From: an uncultured virus (IMG/VR IMGVR_UViG_3300035214_000047)
Taxonomy: Duplodnaviria > Heunggongvirae > Uroviricota > Caudoviricetes
Virus record (IMG/VR): IMGVR_UViG_3300035214_000047
Length of the DNA: 64,000 nucleotides
Strand: one strand, 5' to 3'
In this document: positions 10,631-54,886 of the stretch, piece by piece
Layout of the letters: every line of letters starts with the position of its first letter
Position numbering within the stretch: position 1 is the first letter of the stretch
The notes under the pieces: generated by a model
Seen by the model: the letters and a program-made list of their open reading frames with translations, nothing else
Told to the model about the DNA's origin: nothing
Databases searched by the model: none
Made by a program: the position numbers and the translations under genes

Positions 10631-10638
10631 TATTTATA
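10631..10638 (-). promoter_or_regulatory. T4-type late promoter
   Basis: TATAAATA on the minus strand, 5 nt upstream of the gp3 start. Confidence 0.75.
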
Positions 10639-13958: not shown

Positions 13959-14354
13959 CTATCTAAATTCAACAACCAATGTATAATTGTCGTGTAAAGC
14001 AAAGTTTTTTGTTGACAAATATACATATCCTGTAGCACCTGTAGCATTGTTAGCTATGTCGTTTCCAGCAGTTCTAAAATCAAAAAAACCATTTCCTGAT
14101 AATGTTAATGCTGTTGTATTAGCAGAAGCTCCTCCCCAGGATATCTCTACTGCTGATTTTGAATTAGCAGTATTAATAGAACACCATACTTTGCTCACGC
14201 TTTTTGTTGCGTCAGCAGTCATAAAATTTGAAGTAGTAGGGTCAACTAATACACTATCAGTTTCTCCAGTACCATCACTTATGTTTGTTCTCTTAACAAC
14301 ATACTTAACTCCAGCTGTATCAGCTATTACTTGCGTTGTTATTGCGTCTGCCAT
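13959..14354 (-). CDS. Hypothetical beta-rich virion protein
   Basis: 131-aa ORF in the head module; GGAG RBS. Confidence 0.7.
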   Translation of the reverse strand: MADAITTQVIADTAGVKYVVKRTNISDGTGETDSVLVDPTTSNFMTADATKSVSKVWCSINTANSKSAVEISWGGASANTTALTLSGNGFFDFRTAGNDIANNATGATGYVYLSTKNFALHDNYTLVVEFR

Positions 14355-14363
14355 TTAACACTC

Positions 14364-14720
14364 CTATGCCGAACTTGCCGGCCCTAATTCTGTTTCTTTT
14401 TGTACTTCTACTGCCAAGTTAAATTTACTAACTTCAGCGTCAACAGAAACTTCCAAAGTTGTAGCCGTATCTAATTTTTGGTCTATAACTTTTCTAGCTT
14501 CTCCTTCTTTCAAACCCCAATTACCAAACCCAGTTAAACTTAAAGTTTGGTCTCCGAGAGTTAGAGTCGCTGTACCAGTTCCTCTTATCTCATAATAAAC
14601 ATTAGCCAATGATATACTCTTGTCGGACTCAAATAAAGTTCCTCCATCTCCGCTTACACCACTAGCAGTTATAATTGCTTTTGTAGTGTCATCAACTTTT
14701 GTTGCGACAGCTAAAGTCAT
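14364..14720 (-). CDS. Hypothetical beta-rich virion protein, possible paralog of 13959..14354
   Basis: 118-aa ORF; LSLTGFGNW resembles LTLSGNGFF in the neighbour. Confidence 0.65.
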   Translation of the reverse strand: MTLAVATKVDDTTKAIITASGVSGDGGTLFESDKSISLANVYYEIRGTGTATLTLGDQTLSLTGFGNWGLKEGEARKVIDQKLDTATTLEVSVDAEVSKFNLAVEVQKETELGPASSA

Positions 14721-29213: not shown

Positions 29214-29243
29214 TTACTATTACCTATTTTCTAAATTTATTAA

Positions 29244-29633
29244 TTAAAATCCTAAATCTGTTAAAAATGTAGCTTTTGCTGTTTTATGATTTGCTATTGC
29301 AGTTGTTGTTGCTCCTGTTGAGTCAGCGACATCTGCTAAAAGGTCTATCATACTTTTTCCTGTAAGGAACTCATTATCTAAAGTGCTTAGTCCTTGTGTT
29401 ACATGAGAACTTGCATTTTTGACTTTTACTTTTTCATCAGCGTCTGATACTACAGCCACACCATATTTTGAAGCGTTTGTGCCATCAGTTGTGATAGTAG
29501 TATTACCATCATCTATAGAAAAATAAGTTTTACCTTCTACTTCTCCTAAACTAATTGGCGTATCACCTACAGGTGCAGTATAATCAGCATCCTGCGCTAT
29601 TCCAGCAGTCATTGAATATATTACTTTTGCCAT
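29244..29633 (-). CDS. Hypothetical protein in the fibre block
   Basis: 129-aa ORF with a GGAG RBS and its own late promoter. Confidence 0.7.
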   Translation of the reverse strand: MAKVIYSMTAGIAQDADYTAPVGDTPISLGEVEGKTYFSIDDGNTTITTDGTNASKYGVAVVSDADEKVKVKNASSHVTQGLSTLDNEFLTGKSMIDLLADVADSTGATTTAIANHKTAKATFLTDLGF

Positions 29634-29666
29634 TTTATTTTCTCCGTTATTGTTTGTTAATACTTC

Positions 29667-29674
29667 TATTTATA
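29667..29674 (-). promoter_or_regulatory. T4-type late promoter
   Basis: TATAAATA upstream of 29633. Confidence 0.7.
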
Positions 29675-29683
29675 CTATTAATG

Positions 29684-32600: not shown

Positions 32601-33769
32601 TATGTTGTTCCTGTTTGTGCGTGATGTTCTGTAGTATCGCCAGTATGTAAATAAATCGTTTTTCTTTCAGAAGAAGCAACTCCACCAGTAGTTGTTCCTT
32701 TCCAAGAATTTGAAACTTGTAAATAAGTGTTATTACTTGCGTCTGTTAATACTGAAACTTGCGTATCTTTTCTTTGTGTGCCATCAGCGTGTTTATGACC
32801 TTGTAAAGCAACTGATTGAGTTTCCCAACCAGGTACATCACCTTGGTCAAAAGTTAATTTGTGAGCAGCACCACCACCACCTCGTCTTGTATCTTCAGCG
32901 ATAGCAGAAGCTTCTGTTTTATACATTGGTGAAAAGAAACCACTATCACCAGTTGAAGTTGTTCCTTTTACATAATAAGGTCCATCAGGATCCTGTCCTA
33001 ATGACTTACCTAAATTATTTGCATTATGAATACCATCAGCAGTATAAGAAAATCCTATTGGATAGTATTTGTTTGAATTTTTTTGTTGAATAAAATTGTA
33101 TCTATGACCTTCTCTAACAAACTCAAAGTTTCTATATCCAGCGAATTGTCTACCTTTAGTATCAGAACCTAGTCTGTTATCAATTTTAAAATCTGCTACA
33201 CCACCTGAAATAGAAACCTGTACTTCAAAAGAATTATCTATTGGTCTGTAGTGGTATCTAAAATAAGTTTGTTCATAACCATTGTAAGTATCCATTTCTG
33301 AATAATCATCTTCTGTTTCTCTAAACATAGAATCATATTCATCCATTAAGTGAGTTTGATGGCGAACAACCGTTCCCAATGCTGTATCTATTTGATTCCA
33401 AGATTGTTCATTTGCGCCTTCTTCGTTAGAACCGTAAGTAGAATTATATTTGATAGGGTTTCCATCTTGGTCGGTTCTTTGTCTTTCGCCTTTTCTTTCG
33501 TTTTCTGTCCAATATTGTGTATAGTTAAATGCGTCAGCACCGTTGTAATCTGGATCTTGCGACCAGTTACCACCAGTTCTTTCTTTTACATTATATCCAA
33601 CTACTTTACTTCCAGGAGCATATGCGCTTGAACCATCAGCAAGATATTCATTTGTTAGTATCCACATTGCGTTAGAATGGTATACTATATCGTCTCTTCT
33701 GTATAGTTGTTCTCTATCGTATTCCCCTTGGAATTGTAATTTAATTCTTCCGAGATTTATTTTTGCCAT
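29684..33769 (-). CDS. Large RCC1-repeat virion/adhesin protein
   Basis: GDVYTWGFNSYGEVG and NIYAWGYNNIGQLG repeats; cyanophage-type fibre module EGKTYKFDQSDSTN..FSTTSDGTH. Confidence 0.8.
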   Translation of the reverse strand: MAKINLGRIKLQFQGEYDREQLYRRDDIVYHSNAMWILTNEYLADGSSAYAPGSKVVGYNVKERTGGNWSQDPDYNGADAFNYTQYWTENERKGERQRTDQDGNPIKYNSTYGSNEEGANEQSWNQIDTALGTVVRHQTHLMDEYDSMFRETEDDYSEMDTYNGYEQTYFRYHYRPIDNSFEVQVSISGGVADFKIDNRLGSDTKGRQFAGYRNFEFVREGHRYNFIQQKNSNKYYPIGFSYTADGIHNANNLGKSLGQDPDGPYYVKGTTSTGDSGFFSPMYKTEASAIAEDTRRGGGGAAHKLTFDQGDVPGWETQSVALQGHKHADGTQRKDTQVSVLTDASNNTYLQVSNSWKGTTTGGVASSERKTIYLHTGDTTEHHAQTGTTYSYVYVDGALQVNSNITAVVTQSRDDTTTLNAGAGRQRLLINGKPVYQLVAEASTVVVGGISGDYQGIDKTGTGTTTALGSTPTSNEDKIELYMPKLTDSTENTERTFEVSVSGSKFHIDGSLATAETVKLEEGKTYKFDQSDSTNAGQTLTFSTTSDGTHASGSAYTTGVTHYGTPGSAGAHTIIKLQAGVAKLYTYSAETASYGFATETYDMSANLGKSYAPGNLPKWRGYGKNGWVKYYLDGYQVDENTYIECFFKSDQADYDYQYPQEMDNGRWKGGNQYNFLNKGERTVELTVPYQTTQSEAEKTVIYPFCLEPTTATRATTGMYNSSGFSIEKSWRGFKHWDKIQSSLRFRGEYSTNTQYNYNDVVSYKPFKKLTNEKWYTQGTGLYKAIRDSKGRPPQHGHQEPTRSPLMTKSSVTAGKLTGYGEHENNNTTGKNYPPHIQSYHNAWESFAGMNAQEQCAGVWFPNRGPIGWPFKHGRSESANTYRNHMYIDKNGALWTIGEGSSSSDMHHARSSSYFREVCFRWRDFYNSESRNEGGYNNRRGPKWSRYDRMRTPRCIQIEQGYDYTTVLFDNGELFHGGYGGHGQQGTGFDGNPNVPVSPDGVENVHFIKITHNIQNEDSTHTICCLTDEGDVYTWGFNSYGEVGDGRATHTYGPKRIPREWFNDEKIIDITCQGTDGTSFYARTSQDNIYAWGYNNIGQLGDTTTVNKYRPILQTGFNASDNGGIAVWQANSGTSHSSFHILDGDGYIWSTGYNNYSHFFDNTTTDRNTMTKADIAPGGDIVDFWTMRYNGYHTSFVRLKNGETWTAGFSGTYYNSGDGGQGTNTAPVQVDKINNLKEVALCNTYSDQCRSYWLTDNGEFFCQGRDVYESMPNPLAGDSWNGEDGTYKPYHAYVPAGTRIRTMCIQGIDQGTSYYGLQPWVGTEDGQCLLWGFSNANNLGHHGPATYSNTGRPLMWGACNGR

Positions 33770-33799
33770 TTTAATTTTTCCCTATCTTAATTATATTTA

Positions 33800-36700
33800 T
33801 TAACATAACACAGGTGGTTGTGCCATTGAGTGGTAATCACCATCATTTTGTCCCATAATATAAGATCCACCATAACCCCACAATAAGTACCTGTTATCAA
33901 AAGTTCTAACTTCTCTAAAGTGGTATCTATTACCATCACTAGAGTAATATCCTCTTCCTCTTACATCTTCAATTCTGCCATGTGCGAAATTAGGCATTCT
34001 TTGCATTTGGAAATAATAATCATCTGTTTCTTCTATTCCATTTGTAGATTGTCTGTCGTTATAACTAGAAGACCAACCTTGACATCCTAATCCATAGTTG
34101 TTTCTTCCAACATTAAACATAAATCCGTCATAAGTTAATACCCAAACATTACACATCCATTCGTTACCATATTCACTATTGCAACCAATGTCTTTAATGT
34201 TTTCTAAATCAGTTGCTGTTGTTCCATTAATCTGCCATTTAGGTGTTACTGGCGAAGTTTGGTTAGTTGAATTTCCTATACCAAGTTCATAGTTAGCATT
34301 GTATCCACAACACTTAATATTACCAACTTGGTCTTTTGTATAGAAAGAAGCATATCTTCCATTTCCAGTAAACCACATATTAGAACAAGTTCCATAACTT
34401 CCGGATCCAGGTCCACTAGACATTTTTGTAAATGTACTAACATCTGTAGTATTTCCCATCATCGCCCATCCAAATTCGTTTCTTCCTGTCCAAAATATTT
34501 GGCCTTTGTCAGTAAGAATAGCAACTCTTCCATATGAAGCTTCAGAATCTATTAATAATTTTTTAATACCACCTATACTTGACGCTCCAACATTATCAAA
34601 AACAGGACTTGTTATTTCAGTTGGTACATGGAGATTAGTTGTGTTACCGTTTGCAAGTTGTCCATATCCATTGTATCCCCAACTATATAATTTTCCTTCG
34701 TCATCAAGCGCATAACAGAAAGCGTGTTGAGCACCAGCAGTCCAGAAAGCAAGAATTTTATTATTATTAAAATAAGTACTTTTTGAAATTTTTTGTGGTC
34801 TAGTTTTATCAGTTGTTGTATTATCTCCTAATTGACCATAGTTGTTATAACCCCAAGCCCACATTTCGCCATCCGAATCTAACGCATAGCAACTATGAGA
34901 GTTAACATTATTGTTTCCACCCCAATTAGACATCCAAATTCTATTTATTCTAGTTTCCATTAATGTATGTGTTGAAGTATTAGCAGCAGCATAAACTTCT
35001 TGGTATGTTCCACCAGGTCTAACTGGAAAATTTCTGCTTGTAGTAGAAGCGTCACCACTTTGTCCTTGACCTCCGTAACCCCAATGGTATATTTCGCCAT
35101 TATTAAATAATGCCATACCACACTCATATCCAGATATTAATTGAATTGCTTTTGGCGTTTCTTTATCTGGAGTTGTATGAATACCAGAACCTCCATTATC
35201 AGAACTTCTATACCAATCTAGGAATGGGAATGTCATTCCAACTCCTGATAGTACACCATCTATATAAAGTCCAGCTTGTCCAGTTGAGTTTGAACCCCAA
35301 CTTGTAATTCCACCACGACCATTTATGAAACAAGGCCAGTTAACACAATTCGCTTGTTGGAATTGTCCTGGCAATCTGTAATATTTGTTATCGTCTCCAA
35401 GTGGACCACTTGTATTACATAAACTCATACACTCTAATCTATTACCTGAATATCTATGTTGATATCCTCTAGCTTTTTTCTGTGTACTTGCAACATCAAA
35501 GGTTGGAGATGAAGAAGCATAAAATATATATCCATCAAATTTTAGTTGGTCAGAAACAGCGTTATTTTCACCGCCCATTAAAGGAGTGTCATTGTCGTTG
35601 TCCCACTTACTTCTTTGTCTTCCGTGTCTTTGGTCTGGAGATACTTTAATAAGTAAAGCACCCCAAGTTCCTATTGCAGATATTTTTAATACAACATCTG
35701 GAGCACCACCGCCACCAAAACCTGCGTCAGCGAAAGTTAATTCTTCGTCTATAGCGTATCCAAGTCCACCCATTTGACCATTAAGAAGTTTTTTAGTAAG
35801 TGTTGAAACAATAACTTCACCGTCTTGGTCTACTTCAAAATCCCAATAGCAGTTTCCACCACCACCAGTTGAAGAAGTGTGAGTTAAATTTTTATAAATT
35901 CCTTTTTTTCTTTTGTAATGAGCACCACTTTCAACCGTCCAAGTTTTTGCAGATTGATATCCTTCTATTTCAACATCAAACATTGGTGTATTATATCCAC
36001 CAGTTCTTCCTGCACCTGAATTTTCAGCAGCAGCAGTTACATTAATACAATTAACACTTTCATAATATCCTGGTTGTCTACTTGGAGAACCAGCTGATAC
36101 ATTAGTAATTGTTGCAACAGCACCACTATCGGTAATAACCTCATCATCAAATTGCATTTCTTCTGAAACTCTTTCCCAATATTTCCAATCGTCTGTATCT
36201 TTTTCTTGGTCCCAAGGTAAAAATTTGTTAGTACCATCACAAGTATGTTCTCTTATACAAATATAAGTAGCTCTTACTCTTTGAATATGCTCTTGGTTCA
36301 TTGTAGAATGAAGATAATCATTATCTACATCTACAAATACTTTAACTATATCATTTGTGTAGTAAGTTAAATATGAACCAGTATCGTTAGTGTTATCGTG
36401 TTCGCCTCTCCAATTAAATGATTGTCTAATTGGTTTCCAAATTGCATGGTCAGCAACAACTATTTTAGGACCCCAAAAAGCAGAAGCGTTTTGAAAATTA
36501 AACACATAAATTTCTTTAGGTGTTTCTTTTGTAAAATCTATTCTTATTTCTCTAGTAGCAGCATTGTTGAAAGTAGTGTCGTTAAAATAATCTCCAACAG
36601 CAGTTCCAGCACCTACAGCTTTTCCATCTAGTAAATAAGTTACATCTGTATGCCAAAGATTTGTAGCTTTATTTGAAGAAGAGTTAGAAAATGCTACTCG

Positions 36701-37021
36701 GTTATCATCAAAGTCGGCACCATCTTGGTATAAAACCAATGTATCGCCAACTTTATATTGTACTTCTTCTTGCGGCCAAGTTGCTTCACCATCCCATTTA
36801 TATGCGTTTGCACCTGTTCCAGCAGAAACAGCTTTAGTCAATCTAACATATCTTCGTTGATTATCTACTGGTGCAGTTCCAGTTGTTGATGAATTTTTAG
36901 TACAAATCCAATCTGTGTTGTTGTATATAACAACATCATCTTTATGATAGGTCTTTGTACTTGAATATTCACCTTGATAATTGAAAAACAAGTTACCGAT
37001 TCTAGTTTTTGTTGTTGCCAT
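33800..37021 (-). CDS. Large RCC1-repeat virion/adhesin protein
   Basis: GEMWAWGYNNYGQLG and GKLYSWGYNGYGQL repeats; N-terminus shared with its paralogs. Confidence 0.8.
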   Translation of the reverse strand: MATTKTRIGNLFFNYQGEYSSTKTYHKDDVVIYNNTDWICTKNSSTTGTAPVDNQRRYVRLTKAVSAGTGANAYKWDGEATWPQEEVQYKVGDTLVLYQDGADFDDNRVAFSNSSSNKATNLWHTDVTYLLDGKAVGAGTAVGDYFNDTTFNNAATREIRIDFTKETPKEIYVFNFQNASAFWGPKIVVADHAIWKPIRQSFNWRGEHDNTNDTGSYLTYYTNDIVKVFVDVDNDYLHSTMNQEHIQRVRATYICIREHTCDGTNKFLPWDQEKDTDDWKYWERVSEEMQFDDEVITDSGAVATITNVSAGSPSRQPGYYESVNCINVTAAAENSGAGRTGGYNTPMFDVEIEGYQSAKTWTVESGAHYKRKKGIYKNLTHTSSTGGGGNCYWDFEVDQDGEVIVSTLTKKLLNGQMGGLGYAIDEELTFADAGFGGGGAPDVVLKISAIGTWGALLIKVSPDQRHGRQRSKWDNDNDTPLMGGENNAVSDQLKFDGYIFYASSSPTFDVASTQKKARGYQHRYSGNRLECMSLCNTSGPLGDDNKYYRLPGQFQQANCVNWPCFINGRGGITSWGSNSTGQAGLYIDGVLSGVGMTFPFLDWYRSSDNGGSGIHTTPDKETPKAIQLISGYECGMALFNNGEIYHWGYGGQGQSGDASTTSRNFPVRPGGTYQEVYAAANTSTHTLMETRINRIWMSNWGGNNNVNSHSCYALDSDGEMWAWGYNNYGQLGDNTTTDKTRPQKISKSTYFNNNKILAFWTAGAQHAFCYALDDEGKLYSWGYNGYGQLANGNTTNLHVPTEITSPVFDNVGASSIGGIKKLLIDSEASYGRVAILTDKGQIFWTGRNEFGWAMMGNTTDVSTFTKMSSGPGSGSYGTCSNMWFTGNGRYASFYTKDQVGNIKCCGYNANYELGIGNSTNQTSPVTPKWQINGTTATDLENIKDIGCNSEYGNEWMCNVWVLTYDGFMFNVGRNNYGLGCQGWSSSYNDRQSTNGIEETDDYYFQMQRMPNFAHGRIEDVRGRGYYSSDGNRYHFREVRTFDNRYLLWGYGGSYIMGQNDGDYHSMAQPPVLC

Positions 37022-44773: not shown

Positions 44774-45211
44774 TTATTTCTCCTTATATTTACTATTTAT
44801 ACTAATTCCAGTATCGTATCTTATTTCTTTTTCATACCAATCCCTAATATCAGGTATCATTCCTAAAGTTTCATCCTCTGGGAAAGCAGATATTATTGGA
44901 TTGTAAATATGTTTCTTGTCTTTATATATTTCAAAGTATGGGTCATTACTATACAATAACGCTTGGTCATTTAATAAGTCCCAAAAGTTATCTCCATAAT
45001 CTCTCTCTATCCACTTCGCATAACATATCGCTACACAATAACTCTTTGCAGGATATATAAACTTATCTACTCTTTCGTTCCAATGTTTAATAGCGTAATC
45101 TATTATATCTTGGTCACCCCATATTAAGGATATCTCTTTATCCATTAACATATCCGAGTGAGTAGGATTTAGTCTATGGTAAATTTCTTGTTTGAGCTTC
45201 CATTCTTTCAT
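44774..45211 (-). CDS. Hypothetical protein, last gene of the radical SAM cluster
   Basis: 145-aa aromatic-rich ORF overlapping the upstream gene. Confidence 0.7.
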   Translation of the reverse strand: MKEWKLKQEIYHRLNPTHSDMLMDKEISLIWGDQDIIDYAIKHWNERVDKFIYPAKSYCVAICYAKWIERDYGDNFWDLLNDQALLYSNDPYFEIYKDKKHIYNPIISAFPEDETLGMIPDIRDWYEKEIRYDTGISINSKYKEK

Positions 45212-45968
45212 AACTTATATACTCCAAATTTTTACAATCGCTCCATTCAGGAATGTTTATATTTAAATAACTTTTTTTGTTAACTTTATAAAATTTAATC
45301 CAATGATACCACTTAAACAATTGTTTCCATTCTAGTATCCAACCTTGTACATAATAATTACTAGGGTGCGTATCTTTTTTATAAAATTTCTGTCCTGCAT
45401 ATATATTATTAAATCCTTTACCCACACTATATAAATCGTGTCCAACTAGATAGACTTCTTTTAATTCTCTAATATCTTTACAAGCAATATAACCACTTAA
45501 AGGACCTGATGACCAATCCATTTGTTCGGCGTCTCTTACTATGTCTGCTATATTAATAACATAATCTTTTGTAGACCAACTTACACATACCATATTCTTT
45601 TTAGTTTCTTCATCATTATATCCGTGTAATACAAACTCACTTGAACCTGCTCTACCATTTTCTATTAACTGACCTGATTTTCTTATTGCTCTTAAATGTC
45701 TATACCCAGGAAATAACTTGTGTAGTGTAGTTTCAAATTTAGCTTCAGGTATCGTTATCCAATTTTTAAAAAAACATTTAGCTGTATAACAATATCCAGA
45801 ATTATAAATGTGGTGCATAATTGGAGCGTCTTTTGCAACCAATATATCTGGTACAAAATCTTTATAAAGATTATTACAACCTAATATTACACCACGAGGT
45901 TTTAAAGTTTTTAAATCAAAACCTTTTCTACTTCTTCCATTACCAATACAAAATGCTCTATTTGCCAT
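45174..45968 (-). CDS. Maf/DUF115 or sialyltransferase-like protein (putative glycosyltransferase)
   Basis: AFCIGNGRS..GCNNLY..PDILVAKD and VYLVGHD motifs; start reassigned to the ATG at 45968. Confidence 0.55.
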   Translation of the reverse strand: MANRAFCIGNGRSRKGFDLKTLKPRGVILGCNNLYKDFVPDILVAKDAPIMHHIYNSGYCYTAKCFFKNWITIPEAKFETTLHKLFPGYRHLRAIRKSGQLIENGRAGSSEFVLHGYNDEETKKNMVCVSWSTKDYVINIADIVRDAEQMDWSSGPLSGYIACKDIRELKEVYLVGHDLYSVGKGFNNIYAGQKFYKKDTHPSNYYVQGWILEWKQLFKWYHWIKFYKVNKKSYLNINIPEWSDCKNLEYISYERMEAQTRNLP

Positions 45969-46929
45969 ATTTAAACTGATAAGTATCCAAAACATACTTG
46001 TATCCATTACAACCATCTTTTAAATTATCAACATACTTGTAATGTTCAGTTAAACAACCGCCTAGGTATTCACATTTTTTACAAATATCTGATATGGTCT
46101 TTTCTTTTTCTTTTATACACCAATCTTCGTATTCTTTAAAACTATTTAATTCTAAAAAGTATTCTCTATCGTCTTTATCAAATTCCAATACAGCGAATTT
46201 ACCATTTGGTGTAATATATAAGTGGTCATCACTATAAGCGTTATATTTTCCACTTAACGAGTCTATTATTTTATCTCTATTTACAAAATTATAATCACCA
46301 TCTTTTGATCCCTTTTCCAGCATTAATAAATCTAAAACTTTGTTTTCAAATTCTGTATGTGTTATCTTTTGGTCATTTGCTTGATTAGAACTATAAGGTT
46401 TTAATTCTACACTTTTAAGATGAGATTCTTTATGTTGGTCTATACTCAACTTGTTAATATTATTAAATGTTTGCCACCAATGTTCGCTAGAGCGGCTCAA
46501 CACTTCTCTTGTTGCTAAGCATAATATAGAAAAATCAACTGGAAGTTTCGCCATATTATCTTTAACTTTTTCATAGTCTTGTCTAGTCTCTAAATCATAA
46601 CTAACACTTAAATAATAATCGGGATTAAAAAATTCTTCTCTTAATACAGATAAATTTGTATTGATATTAATTCTATCTTTATAATAAAGTCTAATAACTT
46701 CTGTGATGTTCTTTAATTGTTCTTTCTTTAATATACCAATCTCACCACCATATAAATCAATATGATTAATTTCTCTATGAGCAGAAACTTCTGCTAGTAA
46801 TTCATTTAATCTTTCATCACTTATAGTTTTAGTATCGCCTAATTGTTCAGGTGTAAGATAACACCAAGAACATCTAAAATTACAATGATAAGATGGATTA
46901 ACTGATAAATTAATTTTCTGCTTCGTCAT
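45958..46929 (-). CDS. Radical SAM enzyme 4 with a Cys-rich C-terminus
   Basis: CNFRCSWC, YGGE, C-terminal CKKCEYLGGC..C. Confidence 0.9.
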   Translation of the reverse strand: MTKQKINLSVNPSYHCNFRCSWCYLTPEQLGDTKTISDERLNELLAEVSAHREINHIDLYGGEIGILKKEQLKNITEVIRLYYKDRININTNLSVLREEFFNPDYYLSVSYDLETRQDYEKVKDNMAKLPVDFSILCLATREVLSRSSEHWWQTFNNINKLSIDQHKESHLKSVELKPYSSNQANDQKITHTEFENKVLDLLMLEKGSKDGDYNFVNRDKIIDSLSGKYNAYSDDHLYITPNGKFAVLEFDKDDREYFLELNSFKEYEDWCIKEKEKTISDICKKCEYLGGCLTEHYKYVDNLKDGCNGYKYVLDTYQFKYGK

Positions 46930-47014
46930 AATCTAATTCCTCAAAGAATGGTATAATATCGTATACTTCTTTTTCCATTTGTTGTATAAATTTAAAAAAC
47001 TCTAATTCGCTCAT
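46910..47014 (-). CDS. 34-aa acidic peptide (not in the ORF track)
   Basis: MSELEFFKFIQQMEKEVYDIIPFFEELDYDEAEN*; ATGA overlap with the upstream stop; ends inside the next gene. Confidence 0.6.
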   Translation of the reverse strand: MSELEFFKFIQQMEKEVYDIIPFFEELDYDEAEN

Positions 47015-47532
47015 ATGTTATAATCAAAATAACCAGTAAGTCTTTCAACCCCAGCTTCTTTAAACTCTCCAATTTTATGTTCCCAAGTACTTTTGTGATT
47101 TAATAATATAACATCACACTTACCAGGATATAAAAAAGCAGATAATTGTTTTGTCTCAGCAGTTCTTACTTCTAAATGTCCTCCAGTATCAGGATTACTA
47201 GCTCCAGTAAAATACATAAGAGCTGCTACATTTGCTCCTTCTTTCAAATCATTATGCCAATTTAACGAACCTTTGTCTACTCCATTAATAATTTCTGGTT
47301 GTCCATATAAGTTAAACTTACCAGACAATTGACTAATATATTTATCACCTAAATAAGTATGGCACATTTTGAGAGCTTTCTCAACATCTGGTGTATGTAC
47401 TGCCACTTTATATCCATCTTGTGCTTTAAATGGTATTTCAATACCATCAAAAAATCTAAATGGTACTGGATCCAAAGTAGGCCAAACTCCATTAATTAAA
47501 ACATTTTCTATATTGGAATGACTTCTTCTCAT
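47011..47532 (-). CDS. 2OG-Fe(II) oxygenase
   Basis: WHND..LMYF..GGHLEV..WEHK..ER (HxD...H...R). Confidence 0.8.
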   Translation of the reverse strand: MRRSHSNIENVLINGVWPTLDPVPFRFFDGIEIPFKAQDGYKVAVHTPDVEKALKMCHTYLGDKYISQLSGKFNLYGQPEIINGVDKGSLNWHNDLKEGANVAALMYFTGASNPDTGGHLEVRTAETKQLSAFLYPGKCDVILLNHKSTWEHKIGEFKEAGVERLTGYFDYNI

Positions 47533-48618
47533 TTATGCTTCACTTATATATGGTGTCATTTGTAAATTACTTCCATTTGCTTTTAATATTGCAGGTCCTA
47601 ATCTTTTCATTTTCTCACAATGTTTCTCTATTACTCCTGCTCGTTGATAATCTTTTATTGTCTTTCTACAACCATTACATATATTAAACATTGGACAACT
47701 AAAACAAGATTTTTTCATACTTATTAATGAAACATCATCTTGTAATGGTGTAAAAAACTCACCTTTCATTTCTTTTTTAAAATCTATCTCTTTATCTTTA
47801 TCATCACCGAAAGCACCACAACTATAATAATCTCCATCTGGTTGTAAACATCTTATACCTTCATCACACTTTCTACTTAAAGGACAAGTAGTAGAACAAT
47901 CTTTAATACTCAACATCATTTGTTTTGTATTAAACTCCCAAGGTGCTAAACCTTCTAAATAAATTTTAGTGTATATATTATATATATCTGATAATAAAAA
48001 TGGTTCTTTTTGTTCACCACTCATCATTGCATAATTTAACTTACACTCAACACCTGTCTTCTCTTCTCTCCAAAAAGTATGTAAAGTTCCTTCAGGTTTT
48101 TTATCTTCTGACATATACTTTGCAAGTTTAACATTTTTAATTGCGTTGTGTTCGTTCTCTTTAGTAATAACTGAAATAAAATCTGGTCTATAACCAACAT
48201 ACTTTTTCATTGCGTCTGAACATAACCAAAAGTCTTCTTCTGTAAATTCAGAATAATCACCTTTTAATCTTCCCCCACCATATTGAAAAGAAGTAGTTAC
48301 TCCTATTCTATCGTTATTAAATAAGTCAACCCATAAACTAGGTTTCTTATAAAACGGCCATAAGTTTGTTGTTAGTGCAAGTGAAGTAGTATATTCTCTT
48401 TCATCTAACCATCTAATAATCTTCCAATAGTATTCAGGTTCCATCATCAAAGGATCCCCACCATTTACTATGATAGTTTTAGTTTGTGGAAATCTTGTTA
48501 GAAATTCAAATATTTGTTCGTGTTTTAACCAATTCTTTTTCTCATTAGTCAATTGTGTACTTGAGCAAAAAGTACATTTGAAATTACACAATTCAGTTGG
48601 TTTAATTATTAAGTCCAT
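47533..48618 (-). CDS. Radical SAM/SPASM enzyme 3
   Basis: CNFKCTFC, NGGDP, SPASM-like C..DGDYYSC..CFSCPMFNICNGC. Confidence 0.92.
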   Translation of the reverse strand: MDLIIKPTELCNFKCTFCSSTQLTNEKKNWLKHEQIFEFLTRFPQTKTIIVNGGDPLMMEPEYYWKIIRWLDEREYTTSLALTTNLWPFYKKPSLWVDLFNNDRIGVTTSFQYGGGRLKGDYSEFTEEDFWLCSDAMKKYVGYRPDFISVITKENEHNAIKNVKLAKYMSEDKKPEGTLHTFWREEKTGVECKLNYAMMSGEQKEPFLLSDIYNIYTKIYLEGLAPWEFNTKQMMLSIKDCSTTCPLSRKCDEGIRCLQPDGDYYSCGAFGDDKDKEIDFKKEMKGEFFTPLQDDVSLISMKKSCFSCPMFNICNGCRKTIKDYQRAGVIEKHCEKMKRLGPAILKANGSNLQMTPYISEA

Positions 48619-49196
48619 TACACTATTATTGGTTCAGTCTTTGGTTGGTCTTTTACTTCCCATCCTAATACTAAAGATGTTCTCGGATTTATTCCAAAGT
48701 ATGGTTTAACTCTATGTACTAGAAACCCAGGAAATATTATCAGTCTATTAGCTACAGGTTCTATGTTTACGGTATTATAAGGGTATTCAGCAAAAGTTAA
48801 ATTTTTGTATATACTTAATTCACCACCTACCCATTTTTCAGGTGTATAATCACTTTCTATATAATAGATTGCAGAAATTAAAGCACCTTCAACCTTATCG
48901 TGGTGTGGTTCATATAGATGATTGGTCACACTAGATTGGTCGTACTTCTTTAATCTACCTTTTTGAAAATTAGATAACTCTATATTATTATAGTCTATAT
49001 TGTTTGAAAGACAATAATTTACTATAGTTACATTTGCAATTTCCCAAAACTTCTTTTGACAAGGTGTAAAATTAAATGTATCTTGTCCTTTAATTGTAGT
49101 ATTAATTTTACTTTCTTCTTTTAACTGATTTATTAACTCTTTATCAGTTAAGAAATTATCTAATACATCTATTGTATCTGTAAACCTAATTTGCAT
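48618..49196 (-). CDS. 2OG-Fe(II) oxygenase (prolyl-hydroxylase-like)
   Basis: PHHD..AIYY..GGEL..NRLIIFPGFLVHRV..R. Confidence 0.88.
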   Translation of the reverse strand: MQIRFTDTIDVLDNFLTDKELINQLKEESKINTTIKGQDTFNFTPCQKKFWEIANVTIVNYCLSNNIDYNNIELSNFQKGRLKKYDQSSVTNHLYEPHHDKVEGALISAIYYIESDYTPEKWVGGELSIYKNLTFAEYPYNTVNIEPVANRLIIFPGFLVHRVKPYFGINPRTSLVLGWEVKDQPKTEPIIV

Positions 49197-49818
49197 AATT
49201 TATCCAATTCAAACCAGTTGTTGTTTCTTTATCTCTAATCCAAAAGTGGTCATATACTACATCTTTTTCAAAACCAAATTGTTGCATTATCTCTCTATGG
49301 TAAGGTTCTTTTTGTGCTTTCATTTGGTTCATAGATAAGTGTAAGTAATCAAAATAAGAACCAGAAGGACATAATATCTTTCTATCTTTAAATATATTAA
49401 TTGTTTCACACCACATTGTTCTTATCAATCGTCTTCTTTCTATTGCGCTTTTACTTCTCATATAACCAGGGTACTTTAAAGAGCCTACTATAACATAATC
49501 ATCATAGATATGAAACATACCTACACCTTTTATAAAAGTATTAGGTGTTTTATTATGTACCCACATCTTTTCACCAATATTCTTTTGTGCAAGGTTATAT
49601 GTTTCAATGTCTTCTTCTTTCTTACCTAACCATAAAAATAAATGTGCTTGTCTACTATCTATTCTAGGTATAAACGGAGTTTGTATAGGAAACTTATCTA
49701 ACTGAATTTCAATATCTGTATTATTAATTTTTAGTTTTGAAATATCAGGTTGCGATAAAGTTTCTTTGTACTCGTACATTTTCAATATATCTGTGCGTAA
49801 GTTTGTAAACACACTCAT
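49186..49818 (-). CDS. Hypothetical protein in the radical SAM cluster
   Basis: ORF overlapping both neighbours; the start may be the ATG at 49779. Confidence 0.7.
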   Translation of the reverse strand: MSVFTNLRTDILKMYEYKETLSQPDISKLKINNTDIEIQLDKFPIQTPFIPRIDSRQAHLFLWLGKKEEDIETYNLAQKNIGEKMWVHNKTPNTFIKGVGMFHIYDDYVIVGSLKYPGYMRSKSAIERRRLIRTMWCETINIFKDRKILCPSGSYFDYLHLSMNQMKAQKEPYHREIMQQFGFEKDVVYDHFWIRDKETTTGLNWINYAN

Positions 49819-50797
49819 CCAATTCTTCCCTCCATTTATAATCGTGGTTCATAAAGCATCCTAAAGTACATCTATCCAAAAATTCACAACTAGCACAATT
49901 ATATTTTTCTAAAAATTTATTTTCAATAATTGAATTGTCTCTTTTCTTTATAGGCGAAGCATATGCTACTATATCTTTTGGGTCCTGTACAAGATTACCA
50001 CATTGACATAATGTATTGTCTTGTAATATTAATTTACTTGTTCTACAACTAGCGTAATTTCTTTTCTTAAATATCCATTCTCTTACAGGCGAACATTGTG
50101 GATAGTTATCTATTATATACTTAAAGAACTTTAATAACTCCGTATCGCTAGGCATAAAGACTTTAGCGTGTTGGTCTGGTGTATAATAATCAAAATAAAT
50201 CTCATAACCTTCATCATATAAATGTTTGAAGTATGGATCGCCTTTTTCCAAATGAAACTTTATCATTGGTTTAGTTATTAACATTGAAAAAGATTTTATT
50301 TCTTTTCCCCAATAGATTACTTGTTGTTTAAATCGTTCTAAATCTTTTTCGTTAAATCTTCCTCTCGGGTCATAACTAGTAGTCATTGTTGCTTCAATAC
50401 CTTCCTGTTCAGACCAACTTAATAAATCTCTTAATAACTCATTACCTTCATCACTCATAACCAAATTACTAACCCAATTAATTTTTAATTTTTTATCATA
50501 GCGTTTGCATATCATTTGTATGCCTTTTGATAAAGTTTTATATGCGTGATTTAATTCTGTATTATAGATTGCAGGAGCAAAGACTTCGCCACCCATAATA
50601 TTAAATACAACACTCATCATTAATTCACTTCTGATAAATTTTTCTACAGGAATTACTTTATTGATTACGGTATCTATTCCAACCGTGTCGTTGTGATTTT
50701 GCCAACAGAACCCACACCTTAAATTACAGAATTCAAATAAATGAATTGTGTACTCTTGCTCTGGATCTCTTTTGGGGTCTATTAAAAATTCTCGCAT
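49745..50797 (-). CDS. Radical SAM enzyme 2 with a SPASM-like C-terminus
   Basis: CNLRCGFC, MGGE, C..CQC..CASCEFLDRCTLGC..C. Confidence 0.9.
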   Translation of the reverse strand: MREFLIDPKRDPEQEYTIHLFEFCNLRCGFCWQNHNDTVGIDTVINKVIPVEKFIRSELMMSVVFNIMGGEVFAPAIYNTELNHAYKTLSKGIQMICKRYDKKLKINWVSNLVMSDEGNELLRDLLSWSEQEGIEATMTTSYDPRGRFNEKDLERFKQQVIYWGKEIKSFSMLITKPMIKFHLEKGDPYFKHLYDEGYEIYFDYYTPDQHAKVFMPSDTELLKFFKYIIDNYPQCSPVREWIFKKRNYASCRTSKLILQDNTLCQCGNLVQDPKDIVAYASPIKKRDNSIIENKFLEKYNCASCEFLDRCTLGCFMNHDYKWREELDECVYKLTHRYIENVRVQRNFIAT

Positions 50798-50805
50798 TTA
50801 AACTC

Positions 50806-51921
50806 CTACGAGTTTGCGAATAGTCTGAATTTTCCTAGCGTATTTGAATCGTTATCTTTCTTTAAAGAAAAAAGATATTGTAAAAATGAGTAGTTAACAT
50901 TACTAACATCAAATCTTGGGATATACGCCAAAGACGGACTATTCGTCACCGTTTCATTAATTATTGTATCAAAGTCGCTTGATGATAAAGAATTACCACA
51001 AGCTTTATCAAATTGACTCATTGAGTAATCTGGATTTGGAATATTTTGAAAAGTTTGTAATGTACTAATTAAAGTTTTTAATGCAGTTTGTTTTTCACTT
51101 GTCAAATTATCAATTGTTATTGTATTCACATATCCAGCATTTGCAACAGGTTTAGCAGTAAAAACATCTGTATCAGCAAAGGCAGCCAATTCTGTAATTC
51201 CTTCAAAAGGGTTATCAGCATTTATAACAACATCATTTGCTGAATAACCTAATGCAGTTTGTTGAGATTTATTTAAAAGATTTAGAGCCGCATCCTCTCT
51301 AACATCTGTTAATATTTCTTTATAAAATCTTTGTAAAAACATATGGTAAGTAGTAAGTAAATTAGCTTCGTGTGAATTAGCGCCAGCAAAGTACTCTCCA
51401 AGCAATAATTCAATTGAGAAATCTAAATTAAGCGCTTTAACTCTATCTAAATCTAAAGTAGGTAGAACATTAACATATCCTAGAACATCTCCTAAACCTG
51501 TATTCAATTTAGTTAAATCTAAAGTATGTGTAGGTTGTAGTTGAGTATTTGCTGTGATTCTTTCGTTATGTAGATATAGGTCTAAGTATTTTACAATATT
51601 ATCACTATCAGCAAAAGGTAAGATAGTTTTTAACCATATAATAGAGTATTCTAAAAATGCTTGTGTATCGCAATATATAATAACTTTACTATTTAATGAT
51701 TTTTGTTTAGTACATACATCTTCAAAGAAACCAGTTAAGTCAGAATACTTACCTGACATTTCATTTCTATTCGTTGCATAGTTAATTAGTGTACCACTAT
51801 AAGCAGTCCCTAATTGTTCGTGCATTGCATTTCCTTTATCTTCGGAAATAACATATCTATTTGTATGACAATCTATTGAGTCATCAAAATTTAAATAAAC
51901 TTTATTAAACAGGTGTAGCAT
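50806..51921 (-). CDS. Hypothetical protein in the radical SAM cluster
   Basis: 371-aa ORF overlapping the upstream gene; no family recognised. Confidence 0.75.
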   Translation of the reverse strand: MLHLFNKVYLNFDDSIDCHTNRYVISEDKGNAMHEQLGTAYSGTLINYATNRNEMSGKYSDLTGFFEDVCTKQKSLNSKVIIYCDTQAFLEYSIIWLKTILPFADSDNIVKYLDLYLHNERITANTQLQPTHTLDLTKLNTGLGDVLGYVNVLPTLDLDRVKALNLDFSIELLLGEYFAGANSHEANLLTTYHMFLQRFYKEILTDVREDAALNLLNKSQQTALGYSANDVVINADNPFEGITELAAFADTDVFTAKPVANAGYVNTITIDNLTSEKQTALKTLISTLQTFQNIPNPDYSMSQFDKACGNSLSSSDFDTIINETVTNSPSLAYIPRFDVSNVNYSFLQYLFSLKKDNDSNTLGKFRLFANS

Positions 51922-52597
51922 TTAATTTTCCTATATCGGCTGTTTTAGCTTCGTTGTATTTTTTAGTATCAAATTTTCCTTCAGCAACTGCCCAAGTTAA
52001 TAAGAACAATGGGTTTTCTTTAACTCCCCAAAAATTAAATAGACTTTTACCTTTGAACATATATTCTGTGAAGTATTTAGTATAGTATTTAACATTTTTT
52101 TCATTAGTTTTGTTATAGTAAAAGTAAAAATCTTTATGTTTTAATAAACTAACAAAATTAATACCTTTTACATCATTACTATCGTCTTTAGGATAACTCT
52201 CAACAAACTCTTTAAAAGCACCTTCTCCAATAATAGACATATTATATAAAGGAAGACTTTCTAATTTATTTGCCCATAGTTCAATTATTTCTAAATTTTG
52301 AGAAATAAAAGCACCGTGAACAACATTTTTCATTAAACCTTTATGTTCAAAGAGAACTTGTATAGCAACTCTTTCTAACATAGGTACTTTGACTAACATT
52401 TGTGTTTCAAAATATGCTAATAATAATTCATCATCATAGTTTGACACATCACAAGGGATATCTAAATTACTTAAATAAGTTAAAAATTGTTGTCCTTGTA
52501 ACTCACTCTTTTGATAGTCTATAATATAACTTTGTGTTTTATCTTCAAAGTATTTTTTTAAATTCTTTAATTCAATTGGTACTATAGTTTCAATCAT
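51905..52597 (-). CDS. Hypothetical protein in the radical SAM cluster
   Basis: 230-aa ORF; TAATG coupling to the putative precursor gene. Confidence 0.75.
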   Translation of the reverse strand: MIETIVPIELKNLKKYFEDKTQSYIIDYQKSELQGQQFLTYLSNLDIPCDVSNYDDELLLAYFETQMLVKVPMLERVAIQVLFEHKGLMKNVVHGAFISQNLEIIELWANKLESLPLYNMSIIGEGAFKEFVESYPKDDSNDVKGINFVSLLKHKDFYFYYNKTNEKNVKYYTKYFTEYMFKGKSLFNFWGVKENPLFLLTWAVAEGKFDTKKYNEAKTADIGKLNATPV

Positions 52598-53370
52598 TAT
52601 CTTCTACTCCTACTGCCGTGGCAACTAGAGTGGCAACTTGAATGGCAAATCGTTTTAGTCATTGTATATGTGTTAGCTCTTTCACTGGTATAACTACTTG
52701 CTAATGTAGATAGATAATTTTCTACACTTGTTGAAGTAGCAAGTGCTCCTGTTGATAATGCACCTGGTTGACTAGGCGTCAAGGTGACTCTTTGTGCTGT
52801 TGTTAAATGTGCAATTTCTGTTTGATTATATTGTTGAGCACCACCTGTTAAATTTACTACAGCATTGCAATTTTTAATATTAGTGTAATTATTCATTTCA
52901 TTTTTTAAAGTAGAGTAAATATCATAAGCGTCAATAAGACTTCCTGTATTACCAATATTACCACCAGTTACTCCAACGCTAACTGCTGAAACTTCTGTCA
53001 ATGTTGAAATCGTTCCAATCGCTCCAGAAGAAGCACCAGTTAAAATATCATTTTGTAAAAAATTCGTTTGTCCAGAACCTGGAACTATGTTTCTAACTTT
53101 CAATGTATTACTAGAATAAGATACAACAACTCCTGTTGTAGCTGATATGCTTCCAGTAACCGTTTCGTTAACCGTAAATGTTCCTGTGGTATTAATAAGG
53201 ACTAAAGACATACCATCAACTACTCCACCAAAATCAGCGGTGGTAAACGCTGAGTGTCCTGGTAAGTTATCTGTACCCCATACTATACTAGTATCTGCTA
53301 CATCTGTTACCAATTCTTTAAATCTATCTACTATGTTCTGTGCCGTTATCGGACTTGTTAATGTTACCAT
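52597..53370 (-). CDS. Virion-like protein with C-terminal (CHxS)3-RSRR; putative radical SAM substrate
   Basis: Thr/Ser/Gly-rich body with baseplate-type F..NETVTG..S repeats; ends TICHSSCHSSCHGSRSRR. Confidence 0.75.
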   Translation of the reverse strand: MVTLTSPITAQNIVDRFKELVTDVADTSIVWGTDNLPGHSAFTTADFGGVVDGMSLVLINTTGTFTVNETVTGSISATTGVVVSYSSNTLKVRNIVPGSGQTNFLQNDILTGASSGAIGTISTLTEVSAVSVGVTGGNIGNTGSLIDAYDIYSTLKNEMNNYTNIKNCNAVVNLTGGAQQYNQTEIAHLTTAQRVTLTPSQPGALSTGALATSTSVENYLSTLASSYTSERANTYTMTKTICHSSCHSSCHGSRSRR

Positions 53371-54398
53371 ATCGCCTCACTTTTATTTTGCGCCAAATGT
53401 TTCATAAGAGATTTAGGAGCACCACATATGTCTCCTTGCCATCCTAATTGGTGACAATCGCCACCACAATACTTGAAAACAGGACATTCCCAACAAATTG
53501 GGTTTCTTGCCACTTCACAAGCAATGACTTCTAATCTCTTTGGATTATTTATAAGACCAACTAAAGGGTCATCCAAAGTACCAAAGTTGAATTCAGGAGC
53601 AGCATTCGGACAACCACCTATTGTGCCAGTTGCGTTAAGTGTAAAGAGCTTTTGTTCACAATTTCTACAAAAAGTTCCTTGCTCCGTATCACCAGAAGTA
53701 AACTTTGAGTAAATAGTTTCTAAAAATTCATTATCAAACCACTTTCTTGCCTTATATTGTATCATTTGTTCGTGCATTTTTAGAAACCACTTGTCTTGTT
53801 CTATATTTGAAGGGAATATTTCAGGATGTAAGTTAGCGTTACCATTACCAGTCAATCGTTCAAGTGCCATTTCTTTAACACCCAAATCTTGCACCCATTT
53901 TAATAATTCAATTGGCTCAATTGCTATCGTATCTTTGGTTACTGATATAAAGAGTTTAATGTCTACACCTTCATCAATTAAAGTAGCAACATTTCGTTTC
54001 CATAAGTTTAATTGTTTCTCATTTTCAAAACGAATATCAGGATCCCAACTAGTTCCACATCTATTCCCTAATGGTCCCTTTATAAAATCTATATGTTCTT
54101 GTTTTAGTTTGAAAACCAAGTTAGTGGTTACACCATAAGATTGATTGCCCCACAAATCTTTAGTTGCGTCATACACATATTGCATTTCAGATACAGGAAC
54201 TAAAAATGGTTCCCCACCGTGAAACTCTAAATGAGCGCTATCGTTTTTTTGTGAATTGTATTTACGGAAATCGTTTAACCATTTAATAACCTTTGTAGTA
54301 TCCCAATATACTTTAGGTCCATTAATGCCAGAAGTGAAACAATGTTTACAATTTAAATTACAAGTTTCGGTTGTTTTTAAATAAAACATCCAATTCAT
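53364..54398 (-). CDS. Radical SAM/SPASM enzyme 1
   Basis: CNLNCKHC, FHGGEP, SPASM-like CRNC..GTIGGCPN..CWECPVFKYCGGDC..C. Confidence 0.93.
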   Translation of the reverse strand: MNWMFYLKTTETCNLNCKHCFTSGINGPKVYWDTTKVIKWLNDFRKYNSQKNDSAHLEFHGGEPFLVPVSEMQYVYDATKDLWGNQSYGVTTNLVFKLKQEHIDFIKGPLGNRCGTSWDPDIRFENEKQLNLWKRNVATLIDEGVDIKLFISVTKDTIAIEPIELLKWVQDLGVKEMALERLTGNGNANLHPEIFPSNIEQDKWFLKMHEQMIQYKARKWFDNEFLETIYSKFTSGDTEQGTFCRNCEQKLFTLNATGTIGGCPNAAPEFNFGTLDDPLVGLINNPKRLEVIACEVARNPICWECPVFKYCGGDCHQLGWQGDICGAPKSLMKHLAQNKSEAIW

Positions 54399-54886
54399 TA
54401 TATAACTCCAATACTTAACCCCCAGGTATCAGCTTCACTTTCAACAAAGTGTTCAACACCTTGTTCAATGATAATTCCTTCATCATCATATAAAGGTTTA
54501 ACCTCATTATTAATATTTACTTTCTTTTTTCCTTTTACAACATATAAGTAAACATCTTTATCATCTTTATGAGGTTTGAAACTAATGCCAGCAGTTTGAT
54601 TAACAAATAAATGAATATCTTGTCTTGTCTTACCTGTGATATTCTTTACTACTTCATCTAATACTTCTTTTAACCAAACAACATCTTCTAAACCTTCCAC
54701 CTTAACAATTTTAAACCTGTTATACTCTCTCAACCATTCACCATAACTCATATGTTCTTTAGCCTCACGGTCAAGTCCATTCTCGTCTATGTAAAATAGT
54801 TGTCTTGCTTCGTATCTAGTGTGTGATTGGATTTCTTCTCTTAATCTCTTAATCCATAATAGAGTTTGTTCGTCTTTACTACTCAT
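54398..54886 (-). CDS. Cupin / JmjC-like protein
   Basis: SFKPHKDDKDVYLYVVKGKK..IEQGVEH (HxD...H). Confidence 0.75.
   Translation of the reverse strand: MSSKDEQTLLWIKRLREEIQSHTRYEARQLFYIDENGLDREAKEHMSYGEWLREYNRFKIVKVEGLEDVVWLKEVLDEVVKNITGKTRQDIHLFVNQTAGISFKPHKDDKDVYLYVVKGKKKVNINNEVKPLYDDEGIIIEQGVEHFVESEADTWGLSIGVI

Follow-up and report, generated by a model that had tools for sequence, protein, structure and literature searches.

Radical S-adenosylmethionine (SAM) enzymes that act on peptides and proteins are known from several systems, three of which resemble, by analogy in mode of action and not by family membership, the gene cassette reported here. This cassette is a minus-strand block at positions 44774-54886 of a 64,000-nt stretch of DNA from an uncultured virus (IMG/VR record IMGVR_UViG_3300035214_000047), hereafter called the window, and it surrounds a gene whose protein ends in a tail rich in Cys and His. 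The HXS antiphage system consists of the effector HxsA, the radical SAM enzymes HxsB and HxsC, and HxsD (models TIGR03976-03979), and blocks DNA entry; HxsB and HxsC mature HxS repeats, with a shift of +8 Da on SHRSS of the full-length protein (Li et al., Nat Commun 2026, PMC13128918). The triceptide synthases HtkB, HaaB and YhhB cross-link C2 of His to the C-beta of the third residue (Phan and Morinaka 2024, PMC11499958). CrpC of Methanococcus voltae puts thioethers on the 28.8-kDa protein CrpA, and QhpD/QhpC is named as a further case of protein modification (Dieter et al. 2026, PMC13692751). T4-like marine viral genomes with many radical SAM genes, one with 12, have also been reported; the passage concerned treats these genes as Fe-S-related auxiliary metabolism, without mention of a tailed protein, a cassette or a connection to virions (Nishimura et al. 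2017, PMC5332604). In the literature searched, no paper was found that describes the present system or prints its tail motif, and searches on phage radical SAM/SPASM with tail, virion or cross-link gave nothing relevant, in agreement with a preliminary description of this DNA that knew of no characterised phage system alike.

We concluded that the cassette is a real and widespread radical SAM/oxygenase unit around a Cys-His-tailed, fibre-module virion protein. The sequence evidence suggests that the enzymes modify the tail of this protein and that the cassette is a self-contained maturation set for one virion-type protein, and we put the probability of each of these two statements at roughly 0.6. 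The tailed protein, which the preliminary description had correctly picked out as Cys/His-tailed, ends in three C-H-x-S units followed by R-x-R-R and the stop codon. Such an end was found in 92 of 95 metagenomic relatives; in the remaining three the called gene extends into the following one. When 1.84 billion representatives were searched with a profile, 823 clusters (50% identity, E up to 0.001) fell into the family. Of the 150 best cluster representatives, 139 carry the canonical tail at the extreme C-terminus, and 11 are truncated or show slight variation. The Cys, the His and the three Arg are invariant in all of 59 distinct DNA tails while their codons vary synonymously, so the selection acts on the peptide and not on the DNA. 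The first Ser is also invariant and is encoded by both codon classes, AGY (35) and TCN (24), and at the second and third Ser positions Asn or Ala is tolerated. The bodies diverge to 21-30% identity while the tail stays constant.

The AlphaFold2 (AF2) model of the tailed protein (pLDDT 90.2, pTM 0.82) has a compact folded body, and the last 16 residues leave its final strand with low confidence (pLDDT 55-67). Fold searches gave no match for the body among solved structures. A small beta-barrel inserted at residues 52-129 has its best match (Z 7.7) in a baseplate chain of Klebsiella phage KP1 and is seen again in fibre and structural proteins of T4-like marine phages; shorter family members are without this insert, and in one member a glycine-rich domain of phage type is fused to the protein. 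The phage collection yielded no match, either in a megablast DNA search or in tblastn searches with the tailed protein and with a relative of 188 aa, which low-complexity filtering may explain. Variation in the tail itself was seen in a few members. A member with four C-H-x-S units lies at 156-764 of a contig (L087; GC content 52%) in a metagenome-assembled genome (MAG) of Bacteriovoracia. In the representatives P0145 and P0186 the middle unit is without Cys but with His (C-H-S-N-H-x-N-T-C-H-x-S-R/K-x-R-R), and these natural variants could help to map the modified residues.

Scanning viral contigs with a pattern yielded 134 proteins related to the tailed one; for the best 80 loci, open reading frames (ORFs) were called and searched with the window proteins. 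The full-flank set is made up of the 57 of these loci that extend 9 kb or more downstream and 2 kb or more upstream. The first and second radical SAM enzymes (rSAM1 and rSAM2), the tailed protein and the phrog_20767 protein are present in all 57 loci, and the four radical SAM orthologues are present, always in the same order, in 54. The VrlC-like protein of the window was found in 46 and an LtfC-like protein in 44 of the 57; the counts for the other proteins, including the variable genes, are given in Table 1. In all 73 loci with room for it, the gene for rSAM1 precedes the tailed gene, and in 69 the two are directly adjacent; the phrog_20767 gene directly follows the tailed gene in 77 of 77 loci, and the phrog_20737 gene directly follows that of rSAM4 in 40 of 61. 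A reverse search from rSAM1 gave 367 relatives, and among the best 80 a tail ORF lies downstream in 76, while the other four contigs end 114-275 nt after rSAM1. This neighbourhood analysis, the check suggested for co-occurrence of enzymes and tail, thus shows one conserved unit around the tailed protein. In two loci (L035 and L085) the block from the cupin to the phrog_20737 gene is inverted relative to the fibre genes, which indicates that the cassette is a module in its own right.

Some loci depart from this layout or differ in their source. Two tandem small tailed genes (134-140 aa) were found in each of L090 (9195-10030) and L091 (6062-6879), both contigs of a Rhodobacteraceae MAG, and in L091 the order of the radical SAM genes is 1, 3, 4, then phrog_20737, then 2. 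The whole VrlC-fibre-cassette region is also found on a 32.5-kb contig (L084) binned with a marine MAG labelled Rickettsiales bacterium MED606, where the tailed protein is 70% identical to that of the window; this is probably a phage contig binned by composition, and the label gives only a weak host hint.

The evidence on virions comes from Agrobacterium phage Atu_ph07, whose gp170 is a tailed homologue with a computed mass of 31.894 kDa, in agreement with the published 31,89. In the available part of Supplementary Table S5 of Attai et al. 2018 (PMC6102473), gp170 is listed from virions with 8 unique peptides and 35% coverage; it was detected across gel bands 1-9, with its maximum in band 1, at the top. 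The other proteins peaking in band 1 are of 75-139 kDa, except gp321 (36 kDa), and for most proteins of about 30 kDa the maximum is in bands 7-8 (PMC6102473). By these data gp170 migrates far above its own size. The homologues of the cassette enzymes and of the phrog_20767 protein (gp165-169, gp171 and gp172) are absent from that part of the table, and the fibre homologue gp176 is listed (PMC6102473). Since gp170 is listed and the others are not, the tailed protein, as far as that part of the table goes, is in the particles and the enzymes are not. As to the proposal in the preliminary description that a virion protein is matured, the virion location is supported by this homologue, and the modification is putative.

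The same data bear on a different reading, in which the tail is a plain metal-binding (Zn, Fe or Fe-S) or disulfide motif with i, i+4 spacing, through which a fibre-module protein is stabilised or made to oligomerise, and the enzymes act on another target, for example the neighbouring fibres. Such a motif would suit the position of gp170 at the top of the gel, as the loading buffer described names no reductant (PMC6102473), and also the fact that Cys and His are the most invariant residues with Ser replaceable by Asn or Ala; fibre genes, moreover, flank the cassette in 54 of 57 loci, and fibres of the S74 type precede it in L086. It leaves unexplained, however, the linkage of rSAM1 to the tail (73/73, and 76/76 with room in the reverse search), which persists even where the fibres change side or orientation (L035, L085), as well as the invariant first Ser with its cross-class codons and the fixed R-x-R-R-COOH end. 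In ortholog alignments no cassette protein besides the tailed protein bears a conserved repeat or Cys motif. We consider this reading doubtful.

The cassette is not confined to T4-like phages. Homologues of rSAM1 with 43-53% identity occur in 15 jumbo-phage records (Sinorhizobium, Agrobacterium, Ralstonia, Burkholderia and Pseudomonas hosts). In the unrelated jumbo phages RSL2 (Ralstonia), Phosso (Sinorhizobium) and Atu_ph07 the gene after rSAM1 bears the same tail on different bodies, and homologues of the cupin, rSAM1 to rSAM4 and the phrog_20767 protein lie near virion or baseplate genes. In papers on two Burkholderia jumbo phages, cupin, radical SAM and 2-oxoglutarate (2OG) proteins are merely listed as accessory genes. 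A scan of one genome per prokaryote species gave nine loci, all in MAGs, several of which resemble phage contigs; the label is Bdellovibrio, Bdellovibrionaceae or Bacteriovoracia in three of the nine. In the Bdellovibrio-type locus L086 three Peptidase_S74-type fibre genes lie directly upstream of the cassette, and one Bdellovibrio-type locus is flanked by FabH and an AMP-binding enzyme. Chromosomal residence of the Bdellovibrio-type loci is likely, provided that the MAG binning is correct. The system is widespread: its carriers are T4-like phages from the sea and from fresh water, jumbo phages whose hosts are plant-associated, and MAGs of predatory bacteria.

Like HXS, the cassette has several radical SAM genes beside a full-length protein with tandem His-x-Ser units among basic residues, and a small partner protein in the set; both are concerned with phage-host contact at the cell envelope. 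Unlike HXS, the units of the cassette are C-H-x-S, three in number and at the extreme C-terminus, four radical SAM enzymes are combined with oxygenases, and the cassette is phage-borne with its tailed protein in the virion, whereas HxsA is periplasmic. Against the NCBIfam models, with which this comparison was made, rSAM1 scored 36.1 bits (HxsB cut-off 370) and rSAM3 31.7 bits (HxsC cut-off 267.9), and none of the 16 proteins scanned matched HxsA (TIGR03979) or HxsD (TIGR03976) at E up to 0.01.

This likeness raises the alternative that the matured tail is an injected or released effector, acting for example in the periplasm during DNA entry or against HXS-type defence, with the body only as its carrier. 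The H-x-S units beside basic residues and the several radical SAM enzymes do parallel HxsA, which acts at phage DNA entry (PMC13128918), and the kit also stands beside fibre genes in MAGs of predatory bacteria; the scores, however, stay under the thresholds for HxsA, B, C and D, no release or cleavage signal was found, and the body is a conserved folded domain and not a leader. We judge an effector role to be quite improbable. Equally speculative, and a long shot in our view, is that in phages and predatory bacteria a particle protein associated with the fibres bears a 'warhead', (C-H-x-S)3-R-x-R-R built by radical SAM enzymes, for envelope passage or guidance of DNA entry, with HXS defence as its counterpart or domesticated relative; if true, one unusual protein modification would be found on both sides of the DNA-entry step.

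The assignment of the four enzymes was made on motifs and family scores. All four match phrog_1802, and the CxxxCxxC motif near the N-terminus is invariant in all four orthogroups. Against the Pfam model Radical_SAM (PF04055, cut-off 29.5 bits), rSAM4 (30.5) and rSAM3 (30.2) score above and rSAM1 (23.5) and rSAM2 (18.8) below the cut-off; rSAM3 and rSAM4 thus belong to the superfamily by score, and rSAM1 and rSAM2 by the motif and phrog_1802. The SPASM domain is marked by seven or eight C-terminal Cys that serve two auxiliary clusters; against its model TIGR04085 (cut-off 27 bits), rSAM1 (29.0) is the sole one above and rSAM3 (21.8) is below. The conserved Cys of rSAM1 are C13/C17/C20 and C244, 247, 263, 302, 305, 311, 315 and 325, a complete SPASM pattern; those of rSAM3 (C11/15/18 and C192, 245, 251, 267, 305, 308, 314, 317 and 334) form a similar set, those of rSAM2 (C24/28/31 and C251, 301, 304, 310, 314 and 329) a partial one, and those of rSAM4 (C16/20/23 and C283, 286, 292 and 307) one cluster-sized set. 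The four CxxxCxxC enzymes with Cys-rich tails of the preliminary description are thereby borne out; its term SPASM-like is upheld by score for rSAM1, with rSAM3 below the cut-off and partial Cys sets in rSAM2 and rSAM4. Pairwise identity among the four is only 20-33% over partial stretches (E ~1e-3), so that they are old paralogues and not recent copies. Since CxxxCxxC lies within the first 31 residues of each, there is no N-terminal extension for peptide recognition (RRE).

The best NCBIfam relatives of rSAM1 are DynA, PapB, HxsB, CbpB and the anaerobic sulfatase maturase (anSME), all far below the family cut-offs, and its PDB relatives are anSME (4k37, E 1.1e-06), CteB (5wgg, E 3e-06) and, in the N-terminal part only, ChlB (E 4.5e-05). 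The PapB model (NF047865) aligns over its full length, 7-317 to 7-318 of 330, at 40.8 bits against a cut-off of 340, and SCIFF (TIGR03974) reaches 31.4 against 425, both under the ranthipeptide and sactipeptide thresholds. The anSME model TIGR03942 gives 34.8 against 349.45 bits, and the tail is without C/S-x-P/A-x-R, which we take to be the substrate motif of that enzyme. Full-length alignments lead to SPASM peptide and protein maturases, and by sequence the nearest families of the enzymes modify peptides or proteins, not cofactors or nucleotides.

The triceptide synthases are also radical SAM/SPASM enzymes; their aromatic-x-X3 motif is one that H-x-S/N/A fits, and repeated substrate motifs are common among them. 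Three H-x-(S/N/A) units were found in the same 139 of the best 150 representatives, which is compatible with, but not specific to, a triceptide substrate. Their substrates, in contrast, are short leader-core peptides and not a folded virion protein, and the cassette has a conserved Cys before each His. The triceptide models (thresholds 370-450 bits) gave 31.3 (YhhB), 20.0 (FxsB) and 21.4 (AmcB) with rSAM1 and 17.4 (XyeB) with rSAM3. CrpC is like the cassette enzymes in being a SPASM radical SAM enzyme that acts on Cys-containing repeats of a whole protein, with Cys before the acceptor residue; unlike them it has an RRE domain, whereas the phage enzymes open directly with CxxxCxxC, and its substrate motif is another one in an archaeal, non-viral setting. 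In this comparison TIGR04463 matched rSAM4 alone, at 19.9 against 525 bits.

That the product of the cassette is instead a new or altered small molecule (cofactor, modified nucleotide or sugar) for late infection, with the tailed protein as a mere neighbour, is very improbable: radical SAM enzymes are versatile, weak matches to the MoaA, QueE and viperin models exist and a dihydrofolate reductase gene lies inside the RSL2 block, but those matches span only N-terminal residues ~3-120, common to all radical SAM enzymes, while the full-length alignments are with SPASM maturases, the conserved core is without nucleotide, sugar or cofactor pathway genes and the linkage to the tail is strict. The reductase gene, annotated at 14042-14578 of the RSL2 locus (L002), stands between two radical SAM genes of the cassette.

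For modification of the tail, the following mechanism is proposed. The compact body of the 257-aa protein would present a flexible (Cys-His-x-Ser)x3-Arg-x-Arg-Arg-COOH tail as the presumed substrate of the four radical SAM enzymes. The enzyme rSAM1, whose stop codon overlaps the start codon of the tailed gene in a way that suggests translational coupling, would act first; the other three and the oxygenases would perform later steps, with the JmjC/cupin and 2OG oxygenases adding hydroxylations, and the phrog_20767 and phrog_20737 proteins may be non-catalytic partners or enzymes of another type. The likeliest chemistry would be oxidative cross-linking inside each C-H-x-S unit, giving either a three-residue cyclophane from His to the C-beta of Ser or a thioether of Cys; the H-x-S/N/A unit fits the aromatic-x-X3 rule of the triceptide synthases, and the preceding Cys fits the thioether logic of CrpC and SPASM enzymes. 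Either cross-link would stiffen the floppy tail into a protease- and redox-resistant structure, and links between subunits are conceivable. The finished protein would enter the fibre/baseplate part of the particle, with a possible role in adsorption or entry, and the enzymes would remain in the cell.

Several points weigh against modification of the tail. No modification has been seen on any member of the family, and the proposed chemistry is an analogy. The three Cys and three His could simply bind metal, and as no reductant is listed for the Atu_ph07 gel, disulfides of the tail Cys or an oligomer stable in sodium dodecyl sulfate could equally explain the top band; gp170 is also smeared over the bands 1-9. 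Characterised maturases are only weakly similar, at 17-41 bits where the curated cut-offs are 268-650, so that their chemistry is not transferable. A complex predicted from rSAM1, the 58 C-terminal residues of the tailed protein, SAM and three 4Fe-4S clusters scored 0.01 (mark 0.32), a result that counts neither for nor against modification. The reverse search spans rSAM1 relatives of at least 62% identity, and the locus counts overstate independence because many loci are close relatives. Late expression of the cassette is putative, its basis being the position among structural genes and a single match inside the rSAM1 gene to TATAAATA, which we take to be the T4 late-promoter consensus.

In the general view, folding, proteolysis and a small number of self-made cross-links complete the particles of bacterial viruses. 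Most likely the tail described here is an enzyme-finished structure of a kind not yet described for any virus particle. If so, virion maturation would have a new layer, in which a dedicated set of four radical SAM enzymes and oxygenases acts on a single particle protein, and enzymologists would gain radical SAM enzymes that modify proteins, in a large and well-defined family whose substrate is obvious. A link between phage entry and the recently described HXS defence is also possible.

The two 2OG-Fe(II) oxygenases and the cupin named in the preliminary description were confirmed; all three keep an iron-binding triad (H-x-D/E...H), and their family scores differ. The oxygenase at 48618-49196 exceeds its Pfam cut-off; the second one, at 47011-47532, is below, yet H93-x-D95...H152 and R164 are kept in 53 relatives. 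The Pfam scores of the cupin/JmjC-like protein are below the cut-offs, and its H106, D108 and H146 are conserved in 45 relatives. For the phrog_20767 protein an AF2 model (pLDDT 84.5) gave no fold match (best Z 4.2), and an Atlas search gave nothing usable. The phrog_20737 protein has an invariant Y-P-x-K-S-Y motif. Its likeness to a rifampin ADP-ribosyltransferase (Atlas rank 28, 110 shared features) was dropped, since none of 42 members matches that Pfam family at E up to 10. The phrog_30607 ORF is probably the one formerly called glycosyltransferase-like, a label that found no support, as no glycosyltransferase family matched in the block in Pfam, NCBIfam or PHROGs. The 34-aa ORF does exist; by tblastn it is full-length only in L003, 100% identical to the window, and in five close loci (85-91% identity). 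It was rejected as a precursor of a ribosomally synthesised and post-translationally modified peptide, as it has no Cys and is kept only in the closest relatives. Maturation of a peptide released from a virion protein, also suggested earlier, found no support, this ORF being outside the conserved set.

The window has about 33% GC and is a T4-like phage region with all genes on the minus strand. It encodes a gp8-type baseplate wedge (phrog_438), a VrlC-like protein of 2035 aa (phrog_358) and several fibre proteins, and further the large terminase, sheath, portal, scaffold, major head protein, a UvsW-type helicase and gp46/gp47-type nuclease subunits. By the ORF listing the cassette comprises 14 consecutive ORFs, transcribed from 54886 down to 44774 in the order of Table 1, which overlap by 1-74 nt or are separated by 0-8 nt; the gap is 9 nt to the upstream fibre gene and 2 nt to the next downstream gene. 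It lies between the 432-aa fibre protein and more fibre-module genes, with fibre genes on both flanks. The ORF map and PHROGs matches thus agree with the earlier account of about 14 packed minus-strand genes beside gp8, the VrlC-like gene and fibres.

Table 1. Features of the cassette and its upstream neighbour in the order of transcription (fractions are full-flank loci with the protein)
Feature	Position	Strand	Evidence
Flanking fibre protein, 432 aa	54896..56194	-	phrog_19602 tail fibre; weak Peptidase_G2 IMC domain, E 0.004 (C-terminal intramolecular-chaperone-type); 54/57
Cupin/JmjC-like oxygenase, 162 aa, first cassette gene	54398..54886	-	Cupin_2 24.7 bits (cut-off 27.2), weak JmjC_2; 43/57
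rSAM1, full SPASM domain	53364..54398	-	phrog_1802, E 6.5e-65; 57/57
TATAAATA, T4 late-promoter-type motif inside rSAM1	53546..53553	-	176 nt upstream of tailed gene
Tailed protein, 257 aa, proposed substrate and virion protein	52597..53370	-	AF2 model; family of 823 clusters
Tail codons, residues 242-257: (C-H-x-S)x3, R-x-R-R, stop	52600..52647	-	invariance in 59 distinct DNA tails
phrog_20767 protein, 230 aa, core partner	51905..52597	-	phrog_20767, E 6.3e-58; 57/57
Unknown protein, 371 aa	50806..51921	-	no Pfam/NCBIfam/PHROGs match; 53/57
rSAM2, partial SPASM-type Cys set	49745..50797	-	phrog_1802, E 6.7e-38; 57/57
Unknown protein, 210 aa, accessory	49186..49818	-	no family match; 25/57
2OG-Fe(II) oxygenase, 192 aa, accessory	48618..49196	-	2OG-FeII_Oxy_3 35.4 bits (cut-off 27); 21/57
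rSAM3, SPASM-like Cys set, called the most conserved of the four	47533..48618	-	phrog_1802, E 4.2e-54; 55/57
Second 2OG-Fe(II) oxygenase, 173 aa	47011..47532	-	weak Pfam, 20.5 bits; 43/57
34-aa acidic ORF, outside conserved set	46910..47014	-	0/57 by phmmer
rSAM4, single C-terminal Cys cluster (twitch/partial SPASM type)	45958..46929	-	phrog_1802, E 6.2e-31; 56/57
phrog_30607 protein, 280 aa, accessory	45174..46016	-	phrog_30607, E 4.7e-40; no Pfam/NCBIfam match; 13/57
phrog_20737 protein, 145 aa, core last gene	44774..45211	-	phrog_20737, E 1.3e-37; 54/57

The motif TATAAATA occurs in the window at 10631, 13256, 13944, 24897, 26997, 29667, 37045, 41326, 41335, 44115, 44794 and 53546; all 12 matches are on the coding (minus) strand, and the total count is not above chance. 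Most of them precede the start of a structural gene by no more than about 60 nt, where late promoters of the T4 type would be expected. Scans for sigma-70-type promoters and for terminators gave site numbers no higher than in shuffled sequence. At 27015-37021 of the window, among tail-fibre genes, three large ORFs (732, 1361 and 1073 aa) match PHROGs annotated as 'regulator of chromosome condensation' (RCC1-like repeats), and they are probably beta-propeller fibre or receptor-binding proteins.

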